Below the pieces are notes generated by a model that saw only the letters and a program-made list of their open reading frames with translations, was not told the origin of the DNA and did not search any database. Source: an uncultured Candidatus Saccharibacteria bacterium (GTDB lineage Bacteria > Patescibacteriota > Minisyncoccia > GWC2-36-17 > WO2-46-25). Taken from it: a stretch of 64,000 bases of DNA. The stretch lies in NCBI GenBank assembly GCA_964359755.1, contig CAYHUB010000001.1, positions 39,797 to 103,796 on the forward strand, written 5' to 3'. How positions within the stretch are numbered: the first letter of the stretch is position 1; each line of letters starts with the position of its first letter. The position numbers and the translations under genes were made by a program. Below, piece by piece: positions 2,667 to 42,763 of this stretch.

Positions 2667-3386
2667 ATGAAGCATCGGATACACAATGAAAAGGGGTCTG
2701 CGCTTCCGCTCGGGAATATCGTGCTTGCGACGATTGCGGCAGTTATGCTTATTGGCGTGGTGTGGTACATGGGGGGCCCGCGCGGAACTACGACCGAGAA
2801 AAAAACAACAGCGCAATCTCAAAAAGGCGAGGGTGATGAACGCGTTGAAATCGGCGCGGGAGGTTCCCCGTCGATCGGACGGCCTGATGCGAAAGTGACC
2901 ATTATTGAGTTTGCCGATTATCAATGCCCGTTTTGCGCGGTGCTTCATGCGGGCGCGGAAGCGGCGATCATAGACGAATACGTAAAAAAAGGGAAGGCGC
3001 GGTTTACCTTCAAACATTATCCTTTTTTAGGGGATGAATCGGTGCGTGCCGCGACCGCAAGCAAATGCGCGCAGGAACAAGAGAAATTTTGGGAGTATCA
3101 CGATGCGCTTTTTGAACGGCAAATGCAGAACACGGGCGAGAATGCCGGCGTTTTTTCCGGTGAAAATCTGAAACGCACTGCGGAAAATGTCGGGCTGAAC
3201 GAAGGGATGTTTGAAAAATGCCTTGCATCGGGAAAATATGAACAGATAATACTCGATGAGATGGAAGAAGGCAGACAGGCGGGCGTGGAAAATACTCCGA
3301 CCATGTTCATCAACGGGCGAAAAACCGAAGGCGCGCTGACGTTTGATGCGTATAAGGCGATAATCGATGAAGAGCTGAGCCGATAG
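2667..3386 (+). CDS. DsbA-family thiol:disulfide oxidoreductase (thioredoxin fold, CPFC active site), membrane-anchored
   Basis: C-P-F-C motif in FADYQCPFCA, preceded by an N-terminal TM helix. The ORF-track start at 2622 overlaps the upstream terminator hairpin, so the start is moved to the ATG at 2667. Confidence 0.75.
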   Translation: MKHRIHNEKGSALPLGNIVLATIAAVMLIGVVWYMGGPRGTTTEKKTTAQSQKGEGDERVEIGAGGSPSIGRPDAKVTIIEFADYQCPFCAVLHAGAEAAIIDEYVKKGKARFTFKHYPFLGDESVRAATASKCAQEQEKFWEYHDALFERQMQNTGENAGVFSGENLKRTAENVGLNEGMFEKCLASGKYEQIILDEMEEGRQAGVENTPTMFINGRKTEGALTFDAYKAIIDEELSR

Positions 3387-17757: not shown

Positions 17758-17771
17758 TAGGAAAGCAAACA

Positions 17772-17810
17772 AAAACACCCTCCTGATATTTAGGAGGGTG
17801 TTTTTGTTTT
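17772..17810. terminator. bidirectional rho-independent terminator (caccctcc/ggagggtg stem)
   Basis: Stem flanked by an A-run and a T-run, between convergent rplL and the 554-aa minus-strand gene. Confidence 0.8.
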
Positions 17811-30783: not shown

Positions 30784-32748
30784 TTAAATCTCGATGACGA
30801 CCGGAAGTACCATCGGGTGGCGGTGCGTTTTCTTGTACAGGAACGCGCCGACCTCTTCGCGGATATTGTCTTTGATATACACCCAGTTGATATCTCCTCG
30901 TCCGCGATCTCCCGCACTGCTTTCTACGATGCGCCGCACCAGCTTTCTCACTTCCATCAGCAATTCTTTTGATTCCCGCATATAAATGAAGCCGCGCGAA
31001 ATGATGTCGGGGTTGCCCTTCACTTTGCGTGAGTATGAGTCGAATGTCGCGATAACGACGAACATGCCGTCTTTTGCCATCATTTGGCGGTCTCGTAACA
31101 CGACATCGCCGATATCACCGACGCCGAGTCCGTCTACGAAAACGTATTCTGATGAAGCCCGTTCTTTTGTTTTGTGGCAGACGCCATTGGCGCATTCTAC
31201 GATCTGTCCGTTATCGGCAATGATGATCTGCTCGTCGGTAAACCCCATTGATTTGGCGAGTTTGCCGTGGATGCAGAGGAACGAGTGATTTCCTTCGATC
31301 GGCATCAGGAATCGCGGTTTCACGGTTTCAATAAGCTTACGGAGATCTTCTTGTTTCGCGTGGCCGCCCGCGTGAATATCCATCATGCGGTAATTGATCA
31401 CCTCAACGCCCTCGCGGTACAGTTTATCGACAAGGCGCTGGACGGTGCGTTCGTTGCCCGGAATGACCGATGAGGAAAAGACGAATGTGTCGCCCTTTTC
31501 CGCCTCAATGTGCGGATGCTCGTGGTTGGCGATACGCATGAGTACCGCGCGGTCCTCTCCCTGCGCGCCGGTCGCGAGGATCACGATCTCATTGCGCGGG
31601 TATCGGTTCATTTCTTCTACGGGGATCACGACGCCCTTGGGAACATTGATATAGCCGAGCTCGCGCGCGATATCAATATTGATCTTCATGCTGCGCCCTT
31701 CAATAATGAGTTTCTTTTGATGTTTCGCCGCGATCTGAATGATCTCATTCAGGCGTCCAAGGAGGGATGCAAAGGTGCCGAAAATAAGTCGTCCTTTTGC
31801 GTTTCGCACGATCTCATCAAGCTCTGTGGATACATCAACCTCGCTCAATTGCTTTCCTGTTTCTCGCGCGTTTGTGCTGTCAGACAATAGGATCAGCGGG
31901 TTTTGGTTTCCCCAGCGTTCCAATTTATCAAGCTCCGTGGTGCCCGCGATGCCGGAACGCTCGTCGATCTTAAAGTCGCCGGTGTGAATGACAATACCTT
32001 CCGGCGTATGCACCACGACGCCGACCGCGCCGGGAATGTTGTGACTGACCCCGAAAAATTCGACTTTAAAAATACCAAGATTGATCACGCTGTCTTTCGT
32101 AATCTGATTAAGCTCCAGTTTCGAGGAAACATCTTTATATTCCTCCTGCCGTTTTTTAACAATGGCAATCGTGAGATCGGTGCCAAAGATAGGCGGGTTG
32201 CCGAGTTTCGGGATAAGGTGGGGAACGGCACCGAAGTGGTCGTAGTGTGCGTGCGTGATGATCACCCCGACGATGTTGCGCTCTTTTCCTTTAAGATAAT
32301 CGACATTCGGAATAATATAATCAATTCCAGGCATATCCTCCTCGGGAAATTGGAGACCCATATCAATAATGAGGATGTTGTCCGCATATTCAAGCACCGT
32401 CATATTCCTGCCGACTTCTTCCATGCCGCCGAGTGGTATGATCCGCAGGCAATTTTTTATAGGAAGCGTTTGTCCCGCGATCCGCGGCGTTAAACGAGGC
32501 GTTTGCGCGCGATGCGCCGGCGCTCGGAAAGGATGACGCGAGCGCTCCGGCCGTGCTGAAGTATTTTGAGGTTCTCCGCGAGGCGCGCTCGCGTGATGCG
32601 GGCGCTCTAGCGGATTATGTGGTGTTCCCGGATGATGCGGTCGCGGTGACCGCGGTTCCGCCGGGTGATGTGGTGCCGCCACGTTTCTGTGTGTCGGCTG
32701 TGCGCCGCGGATCCGTTTCCGCGCCGCACCGATATGTTCTTTCGTCAT
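30784..32748 (-). CDS. rnj: ribonuclease J (beta-CASP metallo-beta-lactamase RNase) with an unusual ~85-aa Arg/Pro/His-rich N-terminal extension
   Basis: The canonical domain starts at LRIIPLGGMEEVGRNM. HAHYDH MBL motif present. The ATG at 32748 gives an 85-aa basic, low-complexity extension; the true start is uncertain. Confidence 0.85.
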   Translation of the reverse strand: MTKEHIGAARKRIRGAQPTHRNVAAPHHPAEPRSPRPHHPGTPHNPLERPHHASAPRGEPQNTSARPERSRHPFRAPAHRAQTPRLTPRIAGQTLPIKNCLRIIPLGGMEEVGRNMTVLEYADNILIIDMGLQFPEEDMPGIDYIIPNVDYLKGKERNIVGVIITHAHYDHFGAVPHLIPKLGNPPIFGTDLTIAIVKKRQEEYKDVSSKLELNQITKDSVINLGIFKVEFFGVSHNIPGAVGVVVHTPEGIVIHTGDFKIDERSGIAGTTELDKLERWGNQNPLILLSDSTNARETGKQLSEVDVSTELDEIVRNAKGRLIFGTFASLLGRLNEIIQIAAKHQKKLIIEGRSMKINIDIARELGYINVPKGVVIPVEEMNRYPRNEIVILATGAQGEDRAVLMRIANHEHPHIEAEKGDTFVFSSSVIPGNERTVQRLVDKLYREGVEVINYRMMDIHAGGHAKQEDLRKLIETVKPRFLMPIEGNHSFLCIHGKLAKSMGFTDEQIIIADNGQIVECANGVCHKTKERASSEYVFVDGLGVGDIGDVVLRDRQMMAKDGMFVVIATFDSYSRKVKGNPDIISRGFIYMRESKELLMEVRKLVRRIVESSAGDRGRGDINWVYIKDNIREEVGAFLYKKTHRHPMVLPVVIEI

Positions 32749-35384: not shown

Positions 35385-35437
35385 AGCTGCGTTAGCGAGG
35401 TAATCTTTTTAGGTTTGACGGCATGATTTTCATTCTC

Positions 35438-35635
35438 CTACGATTTTGCAAGAATAAGCGCCAATTTTTCTACGTTTTTTTCCGACAAGGTAAATCCAGA
35501 AATCTCTGTATTAAACCTCCCACGGTCAATCATTTCCTTCATGATAACGAGAACTTCGTGGTCCTTCTCGTTCTCCGCTTCAAACTCAATTAAAAACGAG
35601 CCTGTTATTGGAATACGTACTAGCATTGCCTTCAT
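35438..35635 (-). CDS. small monocistronic protein, 65 aa, unknown function
   Basis: Consensus promoter TTGACA-N17-TATTGT. AAGGAGGT SD 5 nt before the ATG. Own terminator. Confidence 0.7.
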   Translation of the reverse strand: MKAMLVRIPITGSFLIEFEAENEKDHEVLVIMKEMIDRGRFNTEISGFTLSEKNVEKLALILAKS

Positions 35636-35690
35636 GTCATACCTCCTTTTGATTTATTTGTAAAAGTTCTCTGCCTCAATAGTAGCGCGT

Positions 35691-35719
35691 ACAATAGTGT
35701 GTTTTTTGGAAAGTGTCAA
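35691..35719 (-). promoter_or_regulatory. near-consensus sigma70 promoter (TTGACA-N17-TATTGT) for the 65-aa gene
   Basis: -35 at 35714-35719 and -10 at 35691-35696, read on the minus strand. Confidence 0.6.
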
Positions 35720-35787
35720 CTGTTTTTGTGATAAAATAAAACAGAGCGGTGAATTTTTCACCGCTCTGAATGTTGTGTGATTTTACA

Positions 35788-35979
35788 TCACTTTTTCCGC
35801 TTTTTGAAGTTATCTACTCCTTTTTCAAAAGCATCTCTCCTCTCTGCGTTGTTACTATGATCGCCAATCATTTGGCCTCTGTGCTGAAGGTGAAAAAGTC
35901 CCGCACCCTCGCTTTCTTCCTTCGCCCATTTTTGACCAGCTTCATACAAATCTTCTTTTTCTTCACTCTTAATACTCAT
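35788..35979 (-). CDS. small hydrophilic protein, 63 aa (MSIKSEEKEDLYEAGQKWAKEESEGAG...), unknown function
   Basis: AGGAGGTG SD 7 nt upstream of the Met at 35979; the ORF-track start at 36033 is probably too long. Downstream hairpin terminator at 35741-35768 followed by TTTATTTT. Highly charged, no TM. Confidence 0.65.
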   Translation of the reverse strand: MSIKSEEKEDLYEAGQKWAKEESEGAGLFHLQHRGQMIGDHSNNAERRDAFEKGVDNFKKRKK

Positions 35980-36166
35980 TGCAATCACCTCCTTTCTTCG
36001 GAAGAATCGCGCTTGGCAGATTTTAATAAACATCTGCGGCTAGATATGTATAGTACATATCTTAGGGGCTGCATATATGTATATCAGATCTGCTTTATCT
36101 TGTCAAATTTTTAGGTTAATGATTCCACGCTAATAGAGGTAGAGAGCTTTTTTGTACACGATGCAT

Positions 36167-36195
36167 TTTACAAGGAACTAAAAAATTGATAATAT
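36167..36195 (+). promoter_or_regulatory. promoter TTTACA-N17-TAATAT ending 7 nt before the dcd ATG (leaderless-type)
   Basis: -35 at 36167-36172, -10 at 36190-36195, ATG at 36203. Confidence 0.45.
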
Positions 36196-36202
36196 ACGAA
36201 AC

Positions 36203-36775
36203 ATGATTTTATCAGACAGAGACATCAAGTTATACATCAAGGAAGGCGGGCTGGGGTTCAAGCCGAAACTGAGCGAGGATCAGATTGGACCGGCATCGAT
36301 TGACCTGAAGCTCGGAAATATCTTCAAATTATTCCGTCCGGAACGGTATTTGAGTTTGGACGTAAAAAAAGGCATCCCGGTTGAGTACTTGGAAGCAGTT
36401 ACCGTGAAAGACGGGGATCCGTTTATTTTGCATCCGCATATGTTCGTCCTTGCCGCGACAAAGGAGTATGTCACTATCCCCGATGATATTTCAATGAAAG
36501 TGGAGGGAAAAAGTACACTCGGGCGCATGGGGCTTTTGGTGCATACCGCGGGGTTTATTGATCCGGGATTCGAGGGGCATATCACGCTTGAGCTTTCCAA
36601 TCAGGCAAATTTGCCGATCACCATTTACCCGGGGATGTATGTCTGCCAGGTGGATTGCCAAATGATGTCGAGCCCCGCGGAAGTTCCGTACAACAAGAGA
36701 AAGAAATCCATTTATTCGAAGCAAAGAGGTCCTACCGCGCCGAATACAAAAAACTTATTTGAGCATAAAGGATGA
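36203..36775 (+). CDS. dcd: dCTP deaminase
   Basis: MILSDRDIKLYIKEG N-terminus and beta-barrel dUTPase-like fold motifs. 190 aa. Confidence 0.85.
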   Translation: MILSDRDIKLYIKEGGLGFKPKLSEDQIGPASIDLKLGNIFKLFRPERYLSLDVKKGIPVEYLEAVTVKDGDPFILHPHMFVLAATKEYVTIPDDISMKVEGKSTLGRMGLLVHTAGFIDPGFEGHITLELSNQANLPITIYPGMYVCQVDCQMMSSPAEVPYNKRKKSIYSKQRGPTAPNTKNLFEHKG

Positions 36776-36841: not shown

Positions 36842-38566
36842 TTACTTCAGAGGAATTCCCGTGCCGCCGCGGGCAAAGATATATGCCGGCGTCGTATTTG
36901 CGCGGGAAAGCTTTTCCCACCACGGATATGCTCTGCGCATATGCCGTTCCATCGCGAGAAAGATCTGGCGCACTTCGTGGTTCACGGAGAATTTGCTCCG
37001 TTGCCAGTTGCAAAATTCGATTTCAAGCATATTTGAAGCAAGCAGGAAGCCGATCATATTGCCCAATGAAAGCGGATATTGCATGAGCTCATCCGGAACG
37101 CCCTTTTCCTTCATTTCCGTATACAGCGCGAGGTTCGCGGCATGTATCTTTTCAAATGCTTCCGTAAGCGCGGCAGGCGCTTGCTTGTCGTAGCGGTAAA
37201 ATCCAAGCAGGGGAGTGACATACGTACGCAGATGCGTGCAGAATCCCTGCCGCTGGACGTCGCGCCATCCGCGGAATGTTATCATTCCGGCAAATGAGGC
37301 GCTTGCGAGCTCAAATTCGTTCGGGAGCTTGTCGTATTCTCCTCTCGGCGTTTCAAGGAGTTTGCCGACAACATCCGCAAACGCTATACAGTGTTCGTAC
37401 CCGATCTTTCGTGAGAATGCGCGATAGATCGTTTCTTCAGCTATTGCCGGGCTGTCCATAACCACGACCGCGTCAATTTCTGCTAATGCGTCATTTCCTG
37501 CAAACGGGGCGGTCGAAAGATATTTCCATGATTCCTGCTTCCATGCGCTCGCCTCGGTGTGGCGGATGAATTGGTCAACGCCTGTTTTTTTTGCCTCGAC
37601 GAGAATCTCGTCCACCAGCGCGATATTTTCCGGCGTGTTGTCGAGTATGAGGTGCCGGATAAGCTCCTGGAGCCCTTCGCCCGATACATTCACGCCGACG
37701 GAAGTTTGGGTACCGCAAGGCAAGAAATTACCCAGCACGTCGCACGTTTCGCCGATCACGCCGCTTTCAAGGTCTTTCTCGTTTCCCGCAAACAATGCGC
37801 CGTACTGTTTCCGTAGAAACTGCGGGAACGGACCGGTGAATTTTTCGCCTTCAAGGTCGGTGTAGAACGAAAACGCTCCGTCCATGACATCCTGCACTTT
37901 TTTCTCGTCTACGCCGTACGTGGCAAGCTCCTTGTGTATCGGGTAGTAGCCGCGCTTGCTCATATCAACGTAGCGGGTAGAAAGCTCGATATAGCCGGCG
38001 CCGGGACGGCCCCATTCGAGCGATTTTGCCGCAAGCGCGGAGATCTGTTCAAAGCATATCCATATCGCGCCCATACGCGCGATGGAGTTGTGGCCGTACG
38101 CGTCGAGCCAGCGCTTCATGAACCGCATGATCTTTTCCGCGTGCGTGAGCTCCTCAAGGAATTTCGTGTCCACGCGCACCGCATCGCGAAATGCTTCCCA
38201 TGCTTTTTTTGTTTCTGACGAGTGCGCGACGAACGCGTCGAACGATGTGATGTTGTGATGCTTGAGAAATTGCATACCATCGCCGCCAAACTTCTCTGCG
38301 GTTTCTTTCAGCATGCTTGCGAGCATCTCCGGCATGAAGTTGTCCGCGAATATACCGCGCAAACCCCGCGGATTTTTCATGCGCGAGAACATGGACAACA
38401 GCGCCGTTCCGATGCTTTGCGGAAGCGTGTGCATCAGATACACTTTTTTTTCCGTGTTTGTGAAAAACGGAGCAAGCAATTCCTGCTCGAGTTTCGTGAA
38501 CGAATAGACCGGTGTTGCAACGAACGATCGTGCGTGTGCGAGTGCTGATTTTGGGTACGTATGCAT
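36842..38566 (-). CDS. tandem-duplicated ThyX-like (flavin-dependent thymidylate synthase fold) protein, 574 aa, with degenerate RHR motifs
   Basis: The C-terminal half aligns by eye to ThyX: GVPDE...PLSLGN...NMLEIEFCNWQRSKFSVNHEVRQI...AYPW versus ThyX GVPRE..LPLNL...NFLNLRADSHAQWEIQQ...CPW. The N-terminal half carries YIELSTRYV (ThyX YNELSGRY) and LPCGTQT...IRH. The canonical R-H-R is replaced in both halves. AGGAGG SD 7 nt upstream. Confidence 0.65.
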   Translation of the reverse strand: MHTYPKSALAHARSFVATPVYSFTKLEQELLAPFFTNTEKKVYLMHTLPQSIGTALLSMFSRMKNPRGLRGIFADNFMPEMLASMLKETAEKFGGDGMQFLKHHNITSFDAFVAHSSETKKAWEAFRDAVRVDTKFLEELTHAEKIMRFMKRWLDAYGHNSIARMGAIWICFEQISALAAKSLEWGRPGAGYIELSTRYVDMSKRGYYPIHKELATYGVDEKKVQDVMDGAFSFYTDLEGEKFTGPFPQFLRKQYGALFAGNEKDLESGVIGETCDVLGNFLPCGTQTSVGVNVSGEGLQELIRHLILDNTPENIALVDEILVEAKKTGVDQFIRHTEASAWKQESWKYLSTAPFAGNDALAEIDAVVVMDSPAIAEETIYRAFSRKIGYEHCIAFADVVGKLLETPRGEYDKLPNEFELASASFAGMITFRGWRDVQRQGFCTHLRTYVTPLLGFYRYDKQAPAALTEAFEKIHAANLALYTEMKEKGVPDELMQYPLSLGNMIGFLLASNMLEIEFCNWQRSKFSVNHEVRQIFLAMERHMRRAYPWWEKLSRANTTPAYIFARGGTGIPLK

Positions 38567-38655: not shown

Positions 38656-39444
38656 TCACTGTGCGGCGATAACACAATTGGTAAATAAATGAATAACGGT
38701 CAATGGGCCGATACCGCCGGGAACCGGGGTAAGGATCGCCGCGCGTGAGCGTACCTTCGCACCATGCACATCGCCGACGATCGTTCCTTTATAAATGCTC
38801 GCCCCCGCATCAATGACGCGCGCGCCCTTTTTCACTGTGGTAATAAGATTTGCTTTACCGACACCGGACACGATGATATCAGCATCTTTGGTGAGCGCGG
38901 AAATATTTTTTGTCGTGTGATTGGCGACGACGATATTATTAAACCCGCGCGCGCGTAAGAACGCATGAAGTGGTTTGCCGATAACACGGCCATAGCCGAT
39001 GATCGCGATGCGGTCAGATGTTTTCGGCGCACCGGCATAGGAAAGCATCTCCCAGATAGCGGCAACCGCAGGAGCGACGAATGGCGAGTTCCCGCGCAAA
39101 TTATCAACGTCTTTCTTTGCGGCAATCGCGGCAAGAACACGATCGGTATCTGTGCGCTTTGGTAGGGGAAGCTGCACGATAATGCCATGAACCGCGGTGT
39201 TCGCATTTAGTTTTTTAACCTGCGTGATGATGTAGTCGGTTGTTGTATTTTCGGGAAGGTGTAACAAAAAAAAGCCGCACCCAAGTTGTATTGCCATGCG
39301 TTCCTTTTGGCGCACATACGAAAGCGAAGCGGGGTCGTTTCCCACAAGCACCACCGCAAGCGCCGGCGGCGTTTTCATGCCGCGCACTTTTTTTGCGATA
39401 GCCCGTTCGTGTTTTTTTACAAATGGCGCGCTTGAAAGTATCAT
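38656..39444 (-). CDS. folD: bifunctional 5,10-methylene-tetrahydrofolate dehydrogenase / cyclohydrolase
   Basis: [18 protein letters not shown] and GIIVQLPLP blocks. 262 aa. Confidence 0.88.
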
Positions 39445-40667
39445 CGTGACGTAAGTTCGCGTACTGCGCTTTTTGTTTTTTCTTTTTGTTCGTCGGTCGG
39501 GTTTTTGAGCGTATCTGCGATGAGCTTGCCGATAACTTTCATTTCCGCTTCTTTCATGCCTCGCGCGGTGAGCGCCGGCGTGCCAAGACGGATACCCGAC
39601 GGGTCTGCGGGTTTGCGCGTGTCAAACGGGATCATATTGAAATTTGCGTAGATATCGCACTCGGCAAGCGCGTCCGCGCCTTGCTTGCCTGAAATACCAA
39701 GCCCTGTGCAATCAATGATCATTAAATGCGTATCGGTGCCGCCTGATACGAGGCGCAACCCTTCGCTCATCAGCGCTTCTGCGAGCACTTTTGCATTTTT
39801 TACGATCTGTTGTTGATATTTTTTATACTCGTCCGTCATCGCTTCTTTAAAACATACCGCTTTTGCCGCGATAATGTGCTCAAGCGGACCGCCCTGCATG
39901 CCGGGGAACACCGTTTTGTCGATCTGTTTTGCAAATTGCTCTTTGCATAAAATAATGGCACTACGAGGACCGCGCAGTGTTTTGGTGGTTGTGGTCATGA
40001 CGACATCATGCGTTGGCACAGGACTTTCGTGCACACCCCCGACGACAAGCCCTGCGATGTGCGACATATCCGCCATCGCGTATGCCCCGACCTCTCGCGC
40101 AATTTCAGCGAAGCGCGAAAAGGGGACTGCTCGAGGATATGCGGTGAAGCCCGAAACAATAAGTTTCGGCTTTACTTCCCGCGCAAGCGCCGCAACTTTA
40201 TCCATATCCAATACTTCCGTGTCTTGCTCAACGCCGTAATGTACAAAGTTAAACAGTTTTCCCGAAAGCGACACGGGGTGGCCGTGCGTGAGATGACCGC
40301 CATGCGAAAGGTTCATCGCTAAAATAGTATCGCCCGGTTCAAGGAGCGCGAAATAACACGCGAGATTCGCCTGCGAGCCGGCGTGCGGCTGGACATTCGC
40401 GTGTTCCGCACCGAATAACGCTTTTGCGCGGTCAATGGCAAGCTGTTCTATCTGGTCGATATACTGAGCTCCCGTGTAGTAGCGTTTGCCCGGATACCCT
40501 TCGGCGTATTTATTGGTGAGTACCGTCCCTGCGGCCTCAAGTACCGCGTCAGATGCGATGTTTTCAGATGCGATCATTAAAAGCCCTTCCTGCTGGCGCT
40601 TTTCTTCCTGCGCGATAAGCGCATCGAGTTCGGGGTCAACCTGTGGCAGATGATGTCGTGGGATCAT
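39441..40667 (-). CDS. glyA: serine hydroxymethyltransferase
   Basis: LIASENIAS...[14 protein letters not shown] and PLP-lysine region. Start moved to the internal Met ([14 protein letters not shown]); the ORF-track start at 40745 overlaps the upstream gene. Confidence 0.9.
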
Positions 40668-40738
40668 TGTGTATATAGTACGACAGAGCGCCTCTACAGT
40701 GCAAATTCTGTATAAGCATCGCGGGGCAGGAACGATCT

Positions 40739-42763
40739 TTACCACAAAAATACTTCCAATTTCACTTCAGCATCATACGTATCGCTACTTTCAGCTCCGG
40801 AATATGCTTCGGTTATTTTTGATCCTATAAATATCAATTTCCATTTCGGGCCGCCTCGATAACCAACCTCCGCGCTGATCTTTTCAGACGAGGGAATAAA
40901 TCTTTCGTATTCTGATGTTGCTTTTTCATAGCCCAATTCACCCTTCCATTTCTCGCTGGCAACGCCACCTTTAATTTTAATTTTTTTACCCCAATCAAGC
41001 TCGCTCCCCGCCGCTTCTAAATTTAAAACTTGCACCTCATTGACCTTTACTCCTGTTCCAACGGTGAATGTTTTTGCCACCTCTTTTATTATTGGATCCT
41101 GGTTCTGGAAATCATTTTTTTGTTCGCGAAACATTTCCTGTGCACCGATATAAAATTTCCCGGTTTCGGAAGGATTGATATATATCAACCTCATTCCCGC
41201 CCCAGCTTCACTCATGTTACTCATAGTTCCAATTCCTATTTCTTCATCAAGCGGCAAACTCAAAGCTCCCTGAAAAGTCGCGCCAAAATTCAATATAAAT
41301 TTCCCGTAATCTTCTTTGGTAAATGCATGACTGTCTATGTAATCTGCCGCCAAGCGGGTGATAATTTCATCTTGCGCAACATTGCCTCCATATAAATCTT
41401 TTATGTTCATATGCACTACGGTCGCATCTGCCTCAAATCCAAGCCTCTCGCTTTTTACATTCAATCTCCCCCGTAAGGCGTTCAAATCTTCTAATGATTG
41501 ATATGGATTATTGTTAAAATCCTGAAAATTAAAATATGCCACGGCAAAAGTATCTTTGTTTAATTTGATTTCTTTGACTTCCGGGCTTACGTTGATCTCA
41601 AGTCCTCTTTCTTTTTTAAGCTCACCGCTTGAAAGTTCTCCTTCCAGTCTTTCCGCTGTTTCTTCAATTCCCGCCGCTTTTTCAACTACCTCCTGCGCGC
41701 GACTTTTCACTGGAAATAGCACTTCTTTTTCATTACTAACGAAGGAATGAAATGTCGCTACTGACCTATGGTATCGCTCTGCAACACCAAGAGCCTCCGG
41801 ATATTTCTCTGTGTCAGTTAGTATTAAGGTCCCATAATCACTAAAACCTATTTTCCTTTTCCCGTTAATATCCAGAGCAAATCCAGACCAAACATGTCCG
41901 CCCTGCTCGGTAGAGCCGTTTTGTAGCCATGCTTCCAATCCAAGACTTTTGGCTATTTTTGTCAAAAAAGTATGAATATTGCCGCAGATGCCAGTTCTGG
42001 TGATTTTTCCTGTCATTAATAACTCTCTGAGCGCAGAAAACATTGCGTCATCAGAAATTTCGATATGTTGATTTTTCTCAAGCATATCGAAGTTATAGGT
42101 TCGTCCAAGTGCATTCCCTATATATTGTAAAACTAGGGTTTTTTGATCATCGCTTAATTTATTCTTTTCACCGGATAATGCAGTAAAAAACTCCTTGGAA
42201 TTATTTGATTGAAATATAGAATTCAATTCCGTATCTATCGCACTGTCAAATTCTTGGTGTGAAAGATCTTTATAAAAATCAGAGCCGATCATGGTATTGT
42301 AACCATTAGCCTGTATTGCTTCCGGCCTTCCTTTTGGTATTTTCTCAAATTCACCACTAACAGAGATCTCTATCTTGTCGGCGAACTTCTCCCAATCAAA
42401 CGGCGCAAACTCGTCTTTTTTGTCGGAAGCGATCATTTTTTCAAATAACTCCTGCGGGGATAGCTTTTCTATTGTTGTTTCTTCTATCTGGTTTTCCGGA
42501 GACAATTTCCCCTTGTTTATTTCCTCCTTCTTAAGTCCCTCGGCAAAAGTAGATGCTGCGCTCGTAACTATCGAAAGCGCCGCGAGGCAAGCGACGGCCT
42601 CCTTTTTAAATTTCTCCGGCACTAATTTCATTAAAAAACCCTCGGTTTCTTTTTGGATGACCGATTCCTTTTCGTTAAAATCTTCAAAGATCGCCTCTTT
42701 TTCTTCCGGCGAAGTCTCTTCTTCGAGATATTCCTTTTCGAGTTCGAAATTATTTTCAGACAT
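40739..42763 (-). CDS. large envelope protein with a transglutaminase-like Cys-His-Asp core (DUF3857/TGase/DUF3858-like architecture), in an AT-rich island
   Basis: Acidic N-terminus then TM helix ([19 protein letters not shown]). TGase-like core G-I-C-G-N...GGHVWSGF...D. Beta-rich C-terminus ending in F-L-W. Local GC about 38-42%, against about 52% in the flanks. Confidence 0.6.

Follow-up and report, generated by a model that had tools for sequence, protein, structure and literature searches.

Next to dcd, the window (the whole stretch of 64,000 nucleotides of DNA analysed here) carries a very small minus-strand ORF whose leader holds a palindrome. This locus raises the question of whether the ORF is a gene with signals of its own, how it came to lie beside dcd, and what the palindrome does. 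The preliminary description had taken the ORF for a small stress-protein-like gene under the control of an operator or a thermo- or riboregulatory hairpin. The features to which the text refers are as follows.

35390-36158 (approximate, ~770 bp), no strand: segment without DNA homology to the related genomes L015 and L016, delimited by blastn.
35742-35768, minus strand: intrinsic terminator with a 12-bp stem and a 3-nt loop, found by pattern scan; its T-run is at 35732-35741.
35788-35979 (stop codon included), minus strand: protein-coding gene of 63 aa, MSIKSEEKEDLYEAGQKWAKEESEGAGLFHLQHRGQMIGDHSNNAERRDAFEKGVDNFKKRKK, based on the NCBI annotation and the codon-position pattern.
35981-36010, minus strand: predicted RNA hairpin 3, GCGAUUCUUCC-GAAGAAA-GGAGGuGAUUGC (-10.9 kcal/mol, z = -3.0).
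35986-35993, minus strand: Shine-Dalgarno sequence AGGAGGTG, 6 nt 5' of the ATG, read from the sequence.
36016-36037, minus strand: predicted RNA hairpin 2, GCAGAU/AUCUGC with a 10-nt loop (-7.2 kcal/mol, z = -3.0).
36042-36062, no strand: perfect 9-3-9 palindrome AGATATGTA-tag-TACATATCT, found by inverted-repeat search.
36075-36083, both strands: third exact 9-nt half-site, ATATGTATA on the plus strand and TATACATAT on the minus strand, found by repeat search.
36078-36106, minus strand: predicted sigma-70-type promoter, TTGACA (36101-36106), a 17-nt spacer and TATACA (36078-36083), read from the sequence.
36167-36205, plus strand: dcd promoter TTTACA-17-TAATAT with a TG (36167-36195), found by promoter scan, and the dcd ATG at 36203.

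Two overlapping ORFs compete for this DNA. The 63-aa minus-strand ORF lies behind AGGAGGTG as the preliminary description had placed it, and a plus-strand ORF at 35770-36114 (114 aa) is the longer of the two, with a marginal Pfam match to Herpes_U55 (21.8 bits, cut-off 21.1). Judged from the sequence comparison, the minus-strand ORF is a real gene, since its product is annotated at NCBI, its substitutions follow a coding pattern, and the ATG and the Shine-Dalgarno sequence are kept in an orthologue. The identical 63-aa product in NCBI is AAB598_01815, a hypothetical protein of a Patescibacteria MAG. Relative to the 76%-identical orthologue, the differences fall 9/6/31 on codon positions 1/2/3, and 22 of the 37 differing codons are synonymous. 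Third-position-biased substitutions are thus accompanied by a kept start and a kept ribosome-binding site, of which GGAGGTG is found in the orthologue. If the plus-strand ORF were the real gene, the minus-strand ORF would be its shadow. However, the 9/6/31 pattern fits the minus frame, the antisense ORF is only 68 aa long in the orthologue and has other boundaries there, and the plus-strand ORF would cross the minus-strand promoter and begin beside the terminator. The Herpes_U55 match covers 42 residues of a herpesvirus family that are rich in phenylalanine and leucine. In view of the minus-frame pattern and the 68-aa counterpart, a plus-strand gene is effectively refuted and almost certainly wrong. 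Conservation, to which the preliminary description had looked as possible support for the plus-strand ORF, supports the minus frame and leaves the plus-strand ORF as the shadow. As for the start, the orthologue in genome L001 has an in-frame stop six codons 5' of the common ATG, so the 81-aa reading from 36033 is not conserved; the suspicion that a start at 36033 was too long is borne out by this stop and by the shared ATG and Shine-Dalgarno sequence.

The region reads as a self-contained transcription unit, with a predicted promoter, a ~92-nt leader, a strong Shine-Dalgarno sequence, the ORF and a terminator. Sigma-70-type promoters have a -35 TTGACA, a spacer of 16-18 nt and a -10 TATAAT whose second base is A and whose sixth is T. 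The predicted promoter is present as previously described, TTGACA-N17-TATACA, and in addition its spacer ends in TGA (36084-36086), which represents a TGn extension. Its -35 matches at 6/6 positions and its -10, TATACA, at 4/6. This promoter was recognised by reading the sequence; the consensus promoter scan missed it, as its -10 is without T at position 6. From the predicted transcript start near 36071, the leader would span ~92 nt, slightly less than the ~100 nt first given. At the other end of the unit, the hairpin and T-run terminator already noted was confirmed. Its stem contains 7 G-C pairs and folds at -19.5 kcal/mol (z = -7.8); TTTTATTTTA comes next on the minus strand, and hairpin and T-run together form an intrinsic terminator. 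The terminator stem of the orthologue differs, by reading, through compensatory changes.

Relatives for comparison were retrieved by a dcd search, namely L015 (dcd 93% identical), L016 (Candidatus Azambacteria, 90%), and L017 and L018 (74%). The blastn homology of the window to L015 and L016 ends at 35387/35389 and restarts at 36159/36161, and the segment in between contains a 65-aa gene and the 63-aa unit (~430 bp, about 35721-36158). The 7-nt sequence TTTTTGT is found at both segment junctions, which is a weak hint only. In L015 and L016, the promoters of dcd and of an 88-89-aa gene stand back to back across an intergenic region of 130-135 bp, and the 63-aa gene is missing; in the window, the 63-aa unit is placed between the promoter of dcd and that of the neighbouring small gene. 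It is also missing in the more distant Azambacteria L017 and L018. The 65-aa neighbour is no more than a weak positional counterpart of the 88-89-aa gene; BLASTP between them found nothing, and MAFFT aligned their first 40 residues at ~26% identity.

The gene is rare beyond these genomes as well. None of the GTDB species representatives encodes a relative of the 63-aa protein, a profile search of 1.84 billion representatives retrieved only four protein clusters, and viral contigs and JGI metagenomes yielded no further homologues. Ten contigs encode the identical protein, and in 10/10 of them a stretch of 561 bp surrounding the gene matches the window exactly; all ten come from groundwater samples, mostly labelled Hain_H52. 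Since all carrier contigs are identical across the compared region, selection on the dyad is not measurable. L002, a 97.6%-identical strain with an indel-ridden assembly, is uninformative on conservation. By sequence comparison, the ~430-bp unit is present in an Azambacteria-like genome and absent in its closest relatives. A gain in the window lineage seems the simplest reading, and we favour it over loss in L015 and L016 on the basis of the rarity of the gene and its different context elsewhere, not of a rooted tree. No repeats or integrase mark the ends of the unit.

The different context is seen in the orthologous unit, which encodes a 62-aa protein with 76% identity and occurs in L001 and its close relative L046, members of another Patescibacteria/Paceibacterota lineage. 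There, the gene is flanked by an unknown 422-aa gene on one side and a DEAD-box helicase on the other, and relatives of the L001/L046 lineage carry other genes at that place and no unit beside the helicase. A TTGACA 3' of the L001 terminator is part of the resident helicase promoter. The promoter of the orthologue, TTGACA-N14-TGA-TACGAT, has the same layout as that of the window, and both units have in common, by reading, an ATATGC after the -10, the 9-mer CAGATGTTT and a block GAAA..GGAGGTG..ATG. Because of this promoter layout, these shared elements and the related terminator, the leaders of the two units look homologous. The window leader is ~45 nt longer than that of the orthologue, and the palindrome lies within one extra stretch. 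Between L001 and L046, promoter and leader differ at 2/~100 positions and the ORF at 14/189, which hints that the leaders of the 63-aa gene may be under constraint.

The 63-aa protein has no match in Pfam, NCBIfam, PHROGs, PADLOC or PDB sequences. The label 'stress-protein-like' is unsupported, as no family was found in these collections; stress and small-protein families such as CsbD, KGG and others were considered, with a significant profile match as the criterion. In the AlphaFold model (mean pLDDT 69, pTM 0.28), two helices at residues 5-25 and 44-62 are connected by a loop that is conserved but of low confidence, and Foldseek with this model found no match in the PDB. The homology search proposed with the 63-aa peptide was productive in part, with the orthologue and distant homologues retrieved and no known family among them. 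In two distant homologues, P0004 and P0005, the domain forms the N-terminus of a larger protein. C-terminal to this head, P0004 has a hydrophobic region, read as membrane segments, and P0005 has a ~115-aa all-alpha domain (pLDDT >90, 37 homologues), referred to here as the RVICTHFY domain. The N-terminal heads of RVICTHFY homologues are very diverse. Some are double-glycine-type leaders, and a Vibrio splendidus member with such a leader adjoins a C39-peptidase ABC exporter; other members carry a ~60-aa 'HNxGQxDAAxG...AYxxGY' head, which aligns with the window family end to end but weakly in hhalign (probability 38%, E = 3.4e-4).

In other bacteria, the domain is thus found in frame with unrelated cargo, a putative membrane domain in P0004 and the RVICTHFY domain in P0005. 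L003 and L004 have in common only ~60 nt of leader and the head coding region; the leader and head DNA of the two fused copies is ~85% identical, and their flanks are unrelated. No RVICTHFY partner domain is encoded in the window. On these comparisons, the 63-aa protein is best described as a putative stand-alone version of an exchangeable N-terminal head. One could go further and suppose that the unit is a mobile 5' module (leader plus ~60-codon head) captured as an independent gene, whose palindromic leader would regulate or recombine the modules, a proposal that we consider quite improbable.

The palindrome was said to have near-perfect 11-bp arms. It is real, and its perfect arms measure 9 bp (36042-36050 and 36054-36062) around a 3-nt spacer; 11 bp needs a 1-nt bulge. 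The outer ctgcggc/gcagc arms likewise need a 3-nt bulge and a mismatch, and they lie partly 5' of the predicted transcript start and would thus be partly untranscribed (by reading). A second palindrome around AGATCT is present at 36086-36091 but weak (11 nt, 82%), and it falls within the promoter spacer. Measured from the predicted transcript start, the main palindrome occupies about +10 to +30. It is the sole match in the 64 kb when up to 3 mismatches are allowed, with no second dyad copy anywhere in the window, and 0/100 shuffles yielded any dyad match. Of perfect inverted repeats whose arms measure 9 bp or more, the window contains 14 distinct ones, and the others are G+C-core terminators or lie inside long ORFs (according to the ORF list). 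The third half-site overlaps the -10 hexamer, 5' of the predicted transcript start, and begins 31 bp from the copy in the palindrome; the chance expectation of a half-site copy in the intergenic region is ~0.004. A local duplication could have produced both this half-site and the palindrome. In JGI metagenomes, the exact 21-mer has 46 matches, which we regard as chance since every one has unrelated flanks. The preliminary description had named a lack of conservation in relatives as a refuting result, and the palindrome is absent from L001/L046, the only independent orthologous lineage. Strictly, this absence indicates only that the palindrome is not a conserved part of the control region of the gene; it is specific to the window lineage.

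The proximity of the palindrome to dcd raises the possibility that it serves this gene. The promoter of dcd was described as leaderless, and this is borne out, as its -10 ends 7 nt 5' of the ATG at 36203 with no Shine-Dalgarno sequence and the same arrangement is conserved in L015, L016 and L017. A search of the literature on leaderless mRNAs in this group found nothing usable. The dyad adjoins a dTMP-synthesis cluster (dcd, a ThyX-like gene, FolD and SHMT), and the 31-bp spacing of the two motif copies resembles that of tandem NrdR boxes. It might therefore regulate dcd, for example as an NrdR-type box pair of a nucleotide-metabolism regulon. The NrdR box is a 16-bp even palindrome, acaCwAtATaTwGtgt, which occurs in pairs ~31-32 bp apart upstream of a nucleotide-metabolism gene in genomes that encode nrdR. 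However, the centre of the dyad is ~115 bp upstream of the dcd -35, the site lies in DNA missing from relatives whose dcd promoters are conserved, and the dyad is 9-3-9, with a second site, CATATATG, that is by reading 2 nt too short. A tblastn search with an NrdR sequence found no nrdR in the 64-kb window. Control of dcd is very improbable, and the NrdR-box idea is ruled out by position, motif length and the absence of this DNA in relatives. Since the relatives are without the whole small-gene unit, its closeness to the dcd promoter is probably secondary, and we treat the dcd promoter as a neighbouring feature and not as part of the unit.

The fold check proposed for the leader predicts three consecutive hairpins from the predicted start, with a total of -29.2 kcal/mol (z = -3.3, 0/200 shuffles as good). 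Without the palindrome, the z-score is still -2.8, and the single hairpins each have z ~ -3 to -4. As RNA, the palindrome is A-U rich, has an energy of -7.2 kcal/mol and begins 6-9 nt from the predicted 5' end. Hairpin 2 holds an in-frame upstream ATG (36031-36033) and the 9-mer CAGATGTTT that is, by reading, common to the orthologue leader. Hairpin 3, with 11 bp, pairs the Shine-Dalgarno sequence directly 5' of the ATG. The mean unpaired probability of this Shine-Dalgarno sequence is 0.17, the second lowest among 21 crudely called Shine-Dalgarno-bearing starts, and at the start codon the local fold energy is no outlier, -13.0 compared with an average of -11.7 (sd 6.0). The orthologue leader has z = -0.5, an unpaired Shine-Dalgarno sequence and no equivalent hairpins; hairpin 3 is not present there. 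Rfam gave no family on the leader at E up to 10, and on the window only tRNAs passed, the sub-threshold matches being driven by the terminator. With no Rfam family and no structure kept in the orthologue, the leader does not qualify as a conserved cis-regulatory RNA. The predicted fold suggests that the element able to act on translation could be the hairpin that masks the Shine-Dalgarno sequence (35981-36010), not the palindrome.

For the palindrome itself, we tentatively adopt the reading in which the dyad and the third half-site form an operator, a dimeric protein represses the promoter, and the Shine-Dalgarno hairpin further lowers translation; this is quite possible, though short of probable. 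The repressor would be a dimeric DNA-binding protein from a gene elsewhere in the genome; sitting on the 21-bp dyad just 3' of the -10, it would prevent opening of, or escape from, the promoter, and the acquired gene would stay repressed. The third half-site on the -10, three helical turns away, would be an auxiliary site, and the hairpin covering the Shine-Dalgarno sequence, separate from the dyad, would reduce translation further. A repressor operator is a dyad on the promoter or start that is bound by a regulator and usually recurs at promoters or is conserved with its gene. The position of the dyad near the promoter and the extra half-site fit this description, whereas recurrence in the 64 kb and conservation with the gene were both not seen, and the single occurrence in the window and the dyad-free leader of the orthologue speak against an operator. 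No regulator gene was identified adjoining the unit. Self-regulation by DNA binding seems unlikely because, by reading, the 63-aa protein is near neutral and its orthologue acidic.

A perfect DNA palindrome necessarily folds as RNA too, and the leader may act at that level instead, with the 5' hairpin protecting the mRNA from 5'-end decay and hairpin 3 masking the Shine-Dalgarno sequence. Translation would then need melting, for example by temperature or a helicase. The stable leader fold, which persists without the palindrome, and the low accessibility of the Shine-Dalgarno sequence are in line with this, as are the RNase J encoded at 30784-32748 and the smaller divergence of the L001/L046 leaders than of their ORFs, which suggests constraint. 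Yet the structure is not conserved in the orthologue, Rfam recognises no family, the energy around the start codon is ordinary, and an A-U-rich hairpin of -7.2 kcal/mol placed 6-9 nt from the predicted 5' end is weak as a 5' stabiliser. Nor does an RNA model explain the half-site copy on the -10 and part of the outer arms, since these are 5' of the predicted transcript start, and the third half-site slightly favours a protein-binding operator over an RNA hairpin. We regard action as RNA as rather unlikely. The palindrome could also be functionless, a young by-product of replication template switching or local duplication of TATACATAT in DNA acquired not long ago, with the gene transcribed constitutively from its promoter. 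The arms and the -10 region have the same 9-mer, as expected from copying; the otherwise related orthologue leader is without the dyad; all available copies are identical across the compared region, so nothing shows maintenance; and the exact 21-mers in metagenomes have unrelated flanks. On the other hand, its position exactly between the -10 and the Shine-Dalgarno sequence and the spacing by whole helical turns are traits of a regulatory site, and long perfect palindromes are generally unstable unless selection keeps them. A functionless palindrome is unlikely in our view, and the operator remains our working model.

In practical terms, the locus is of modest value, as a clean and well-delimited presence/absence case of a tiny gene with its own signals in one reduced Patescibacteria genome. 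The window protein is also the founding member of a rare, previously undescribed domain of 60 aa, found both as a protein of its own and as the N-terminal head of other proteins. Should binding of a regulator to the dyad be demonstrated, this uncultured group would gain one of its very few defined operators.

Among known systems, the ROSE and fourU RNA thermometers mask the Shine-Dalgarno sequence, as would the predicted hairpin of 11 bp directly 5' of the ATG in the window leader. In contrast to them, the anti-Shine-Dalgarno sequence of the window is UUCUUCC and not UUUU or a ROSE motif, there is no Rfam match, and the orthologue is without the hairpin. The leaders of Escherichia coli ompA and Bacillus subtilis ermC and aprE also carry stabilisers, and the window shares with them a 5'-proximal hairpin in a long leader and an RNase J gene; unlike those stabilisers, its hairpin is A-U rich, set back 6-9 nt from the predicted 5' end and not found in the orthologue. 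As a DNA site, the dyad fits none of the operator consensus sequences compared, those of NrdR, LexA, Fur and CopY/BlaI (TACAnnTGTA), a comparison made by reading only. The lac operator O1 is a dyad of 21 bp shortly 3' of the start site; the window dyad, of the same length, follows directly on the -10 and predicted start, its candidate auxiliary site a whole number of helical turns away. It differs from lac O1-type operators in that no cognate repressor, regulon or conservation was found. In P0005 of the RVICTHFY family, the window-type domain occupies exactly the place of the double-glycine-type leader or 'HNxGQ' head of other members, whereas the window protein has no further domain attached and the homology between the two head types is weak. 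Unlike prophage 'morons', the unit is without phage context, with no PHROG matches and no viral-contig relative. Like morons and lineage-specific ORFans, however, it is a single small gene with its own promoter and terminator, set between resident genes; close relatives are without it, and elsewhere it has other neighbours. The region is in this respect an ordinary, small, lineage-specific orphan gene unit with a candidate regulatory palindrome.

Two unrelated contigs, L003 and L004, encode the domain of the window's 63-aa protein (hereafter head domain) fused N-terminally to larger proteins. A ~60-nt leader and ~180 nt of head-domain coding sequence are ~85% identical between them (L003 770-1010, L004 1420-1655), while the DNA upstream and the coding sequence downstream are unrelated, and only leader and head are common to both. 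Judged from these sequences, it looks as if leader and head may travel as a single module. In the window, the 7-mer TTTTTGT was found by reading at both junctions (35723-35729 and 36145-36151) of the ~430-bp transcription unit of the 63-aa gene, which is absent from relatives. The paired copies could represent a target duplication, microhomology, or a chance occurrence in A+T-rich DNA.

On one side of this unit, dcd appears to be leaderless. Its promoter reads TTTACA-17-TAnnAT with a TG extension and ends 7 nt before the ATG, and no Shine-Dalgarno (SD) sequence is present. The layout is conserved in three related Azambacteria genomes (L015, L016 and L017), whereas the 7 bases before the ATG differ, and in L017 the promoter lies within the 3' end of the upstream tmk gene.

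Window 36167-36205, dcd promoter region
L015 ~620-666, dcd promoter region
L016 and L017 ~2960-3003, dcd promoter region

A promoter-like site directed at dcd, TAAACA-16-TATAGT (36027-36054, plus strand), has its -10 element centred on the palindrome in the leader of the 63-aa gene and is probably a chance match.

On the other side lies a second tiny gene with its own promoter and SD sequence.

35438-35635, within 35390-35740, 65-aa gene
35719-35691, its promoter, TTGACA-17-TATTGT

Relatives have an 88-89-aa gene in this position, with the MKA start, SD sequence and promoter conserved. The two share only ~26% identity across 40 residues, BLASTP returned no match between them, and the 65-aa product belongs to no known family. 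The 65-aa gene is a small gene that is fast-evolving or replaced.

A further leader, that of a DEAD-box helicase gene, is strongly conserved across three Patescibacteria contigs as TCTCACTGAGGCCGCGC ... AAAATGTCGCAGGATTCCGTGCGACATTTTGC. The second of these blocks is clearly a hairpin, and the leader could be a cis-regulatory RNA.

L001 5300-5380, helicase leader
L047 and L048, immediately upstream of 3001, helicase leader

The longest perfect inverted repeat of the window (17767-17809; 18-bp arms, AAACAAAAACACCCTCCT / AGGAGGGTGTTTTTGTTT) contains an SD-like AGGAGG within its arm and looks like a bidirectional terminator.

Together, dcd, the ThyX-like gene, SHMT and FolD constitute a compact dTMP-synthesis cluster.

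36842-38566, minus strand, ThyX-like gene
38656-40745, minus strand, SHMT/FolD run

The ThyX-like gene is located downstream of SHMT and FolD, convergent with dcd, and the minus-strand run looks like one operon. The ThyX-like protein is unusually long (574 aa); two stretches of it match Thy1, but it matches the thyX equivalog no more than weakly.
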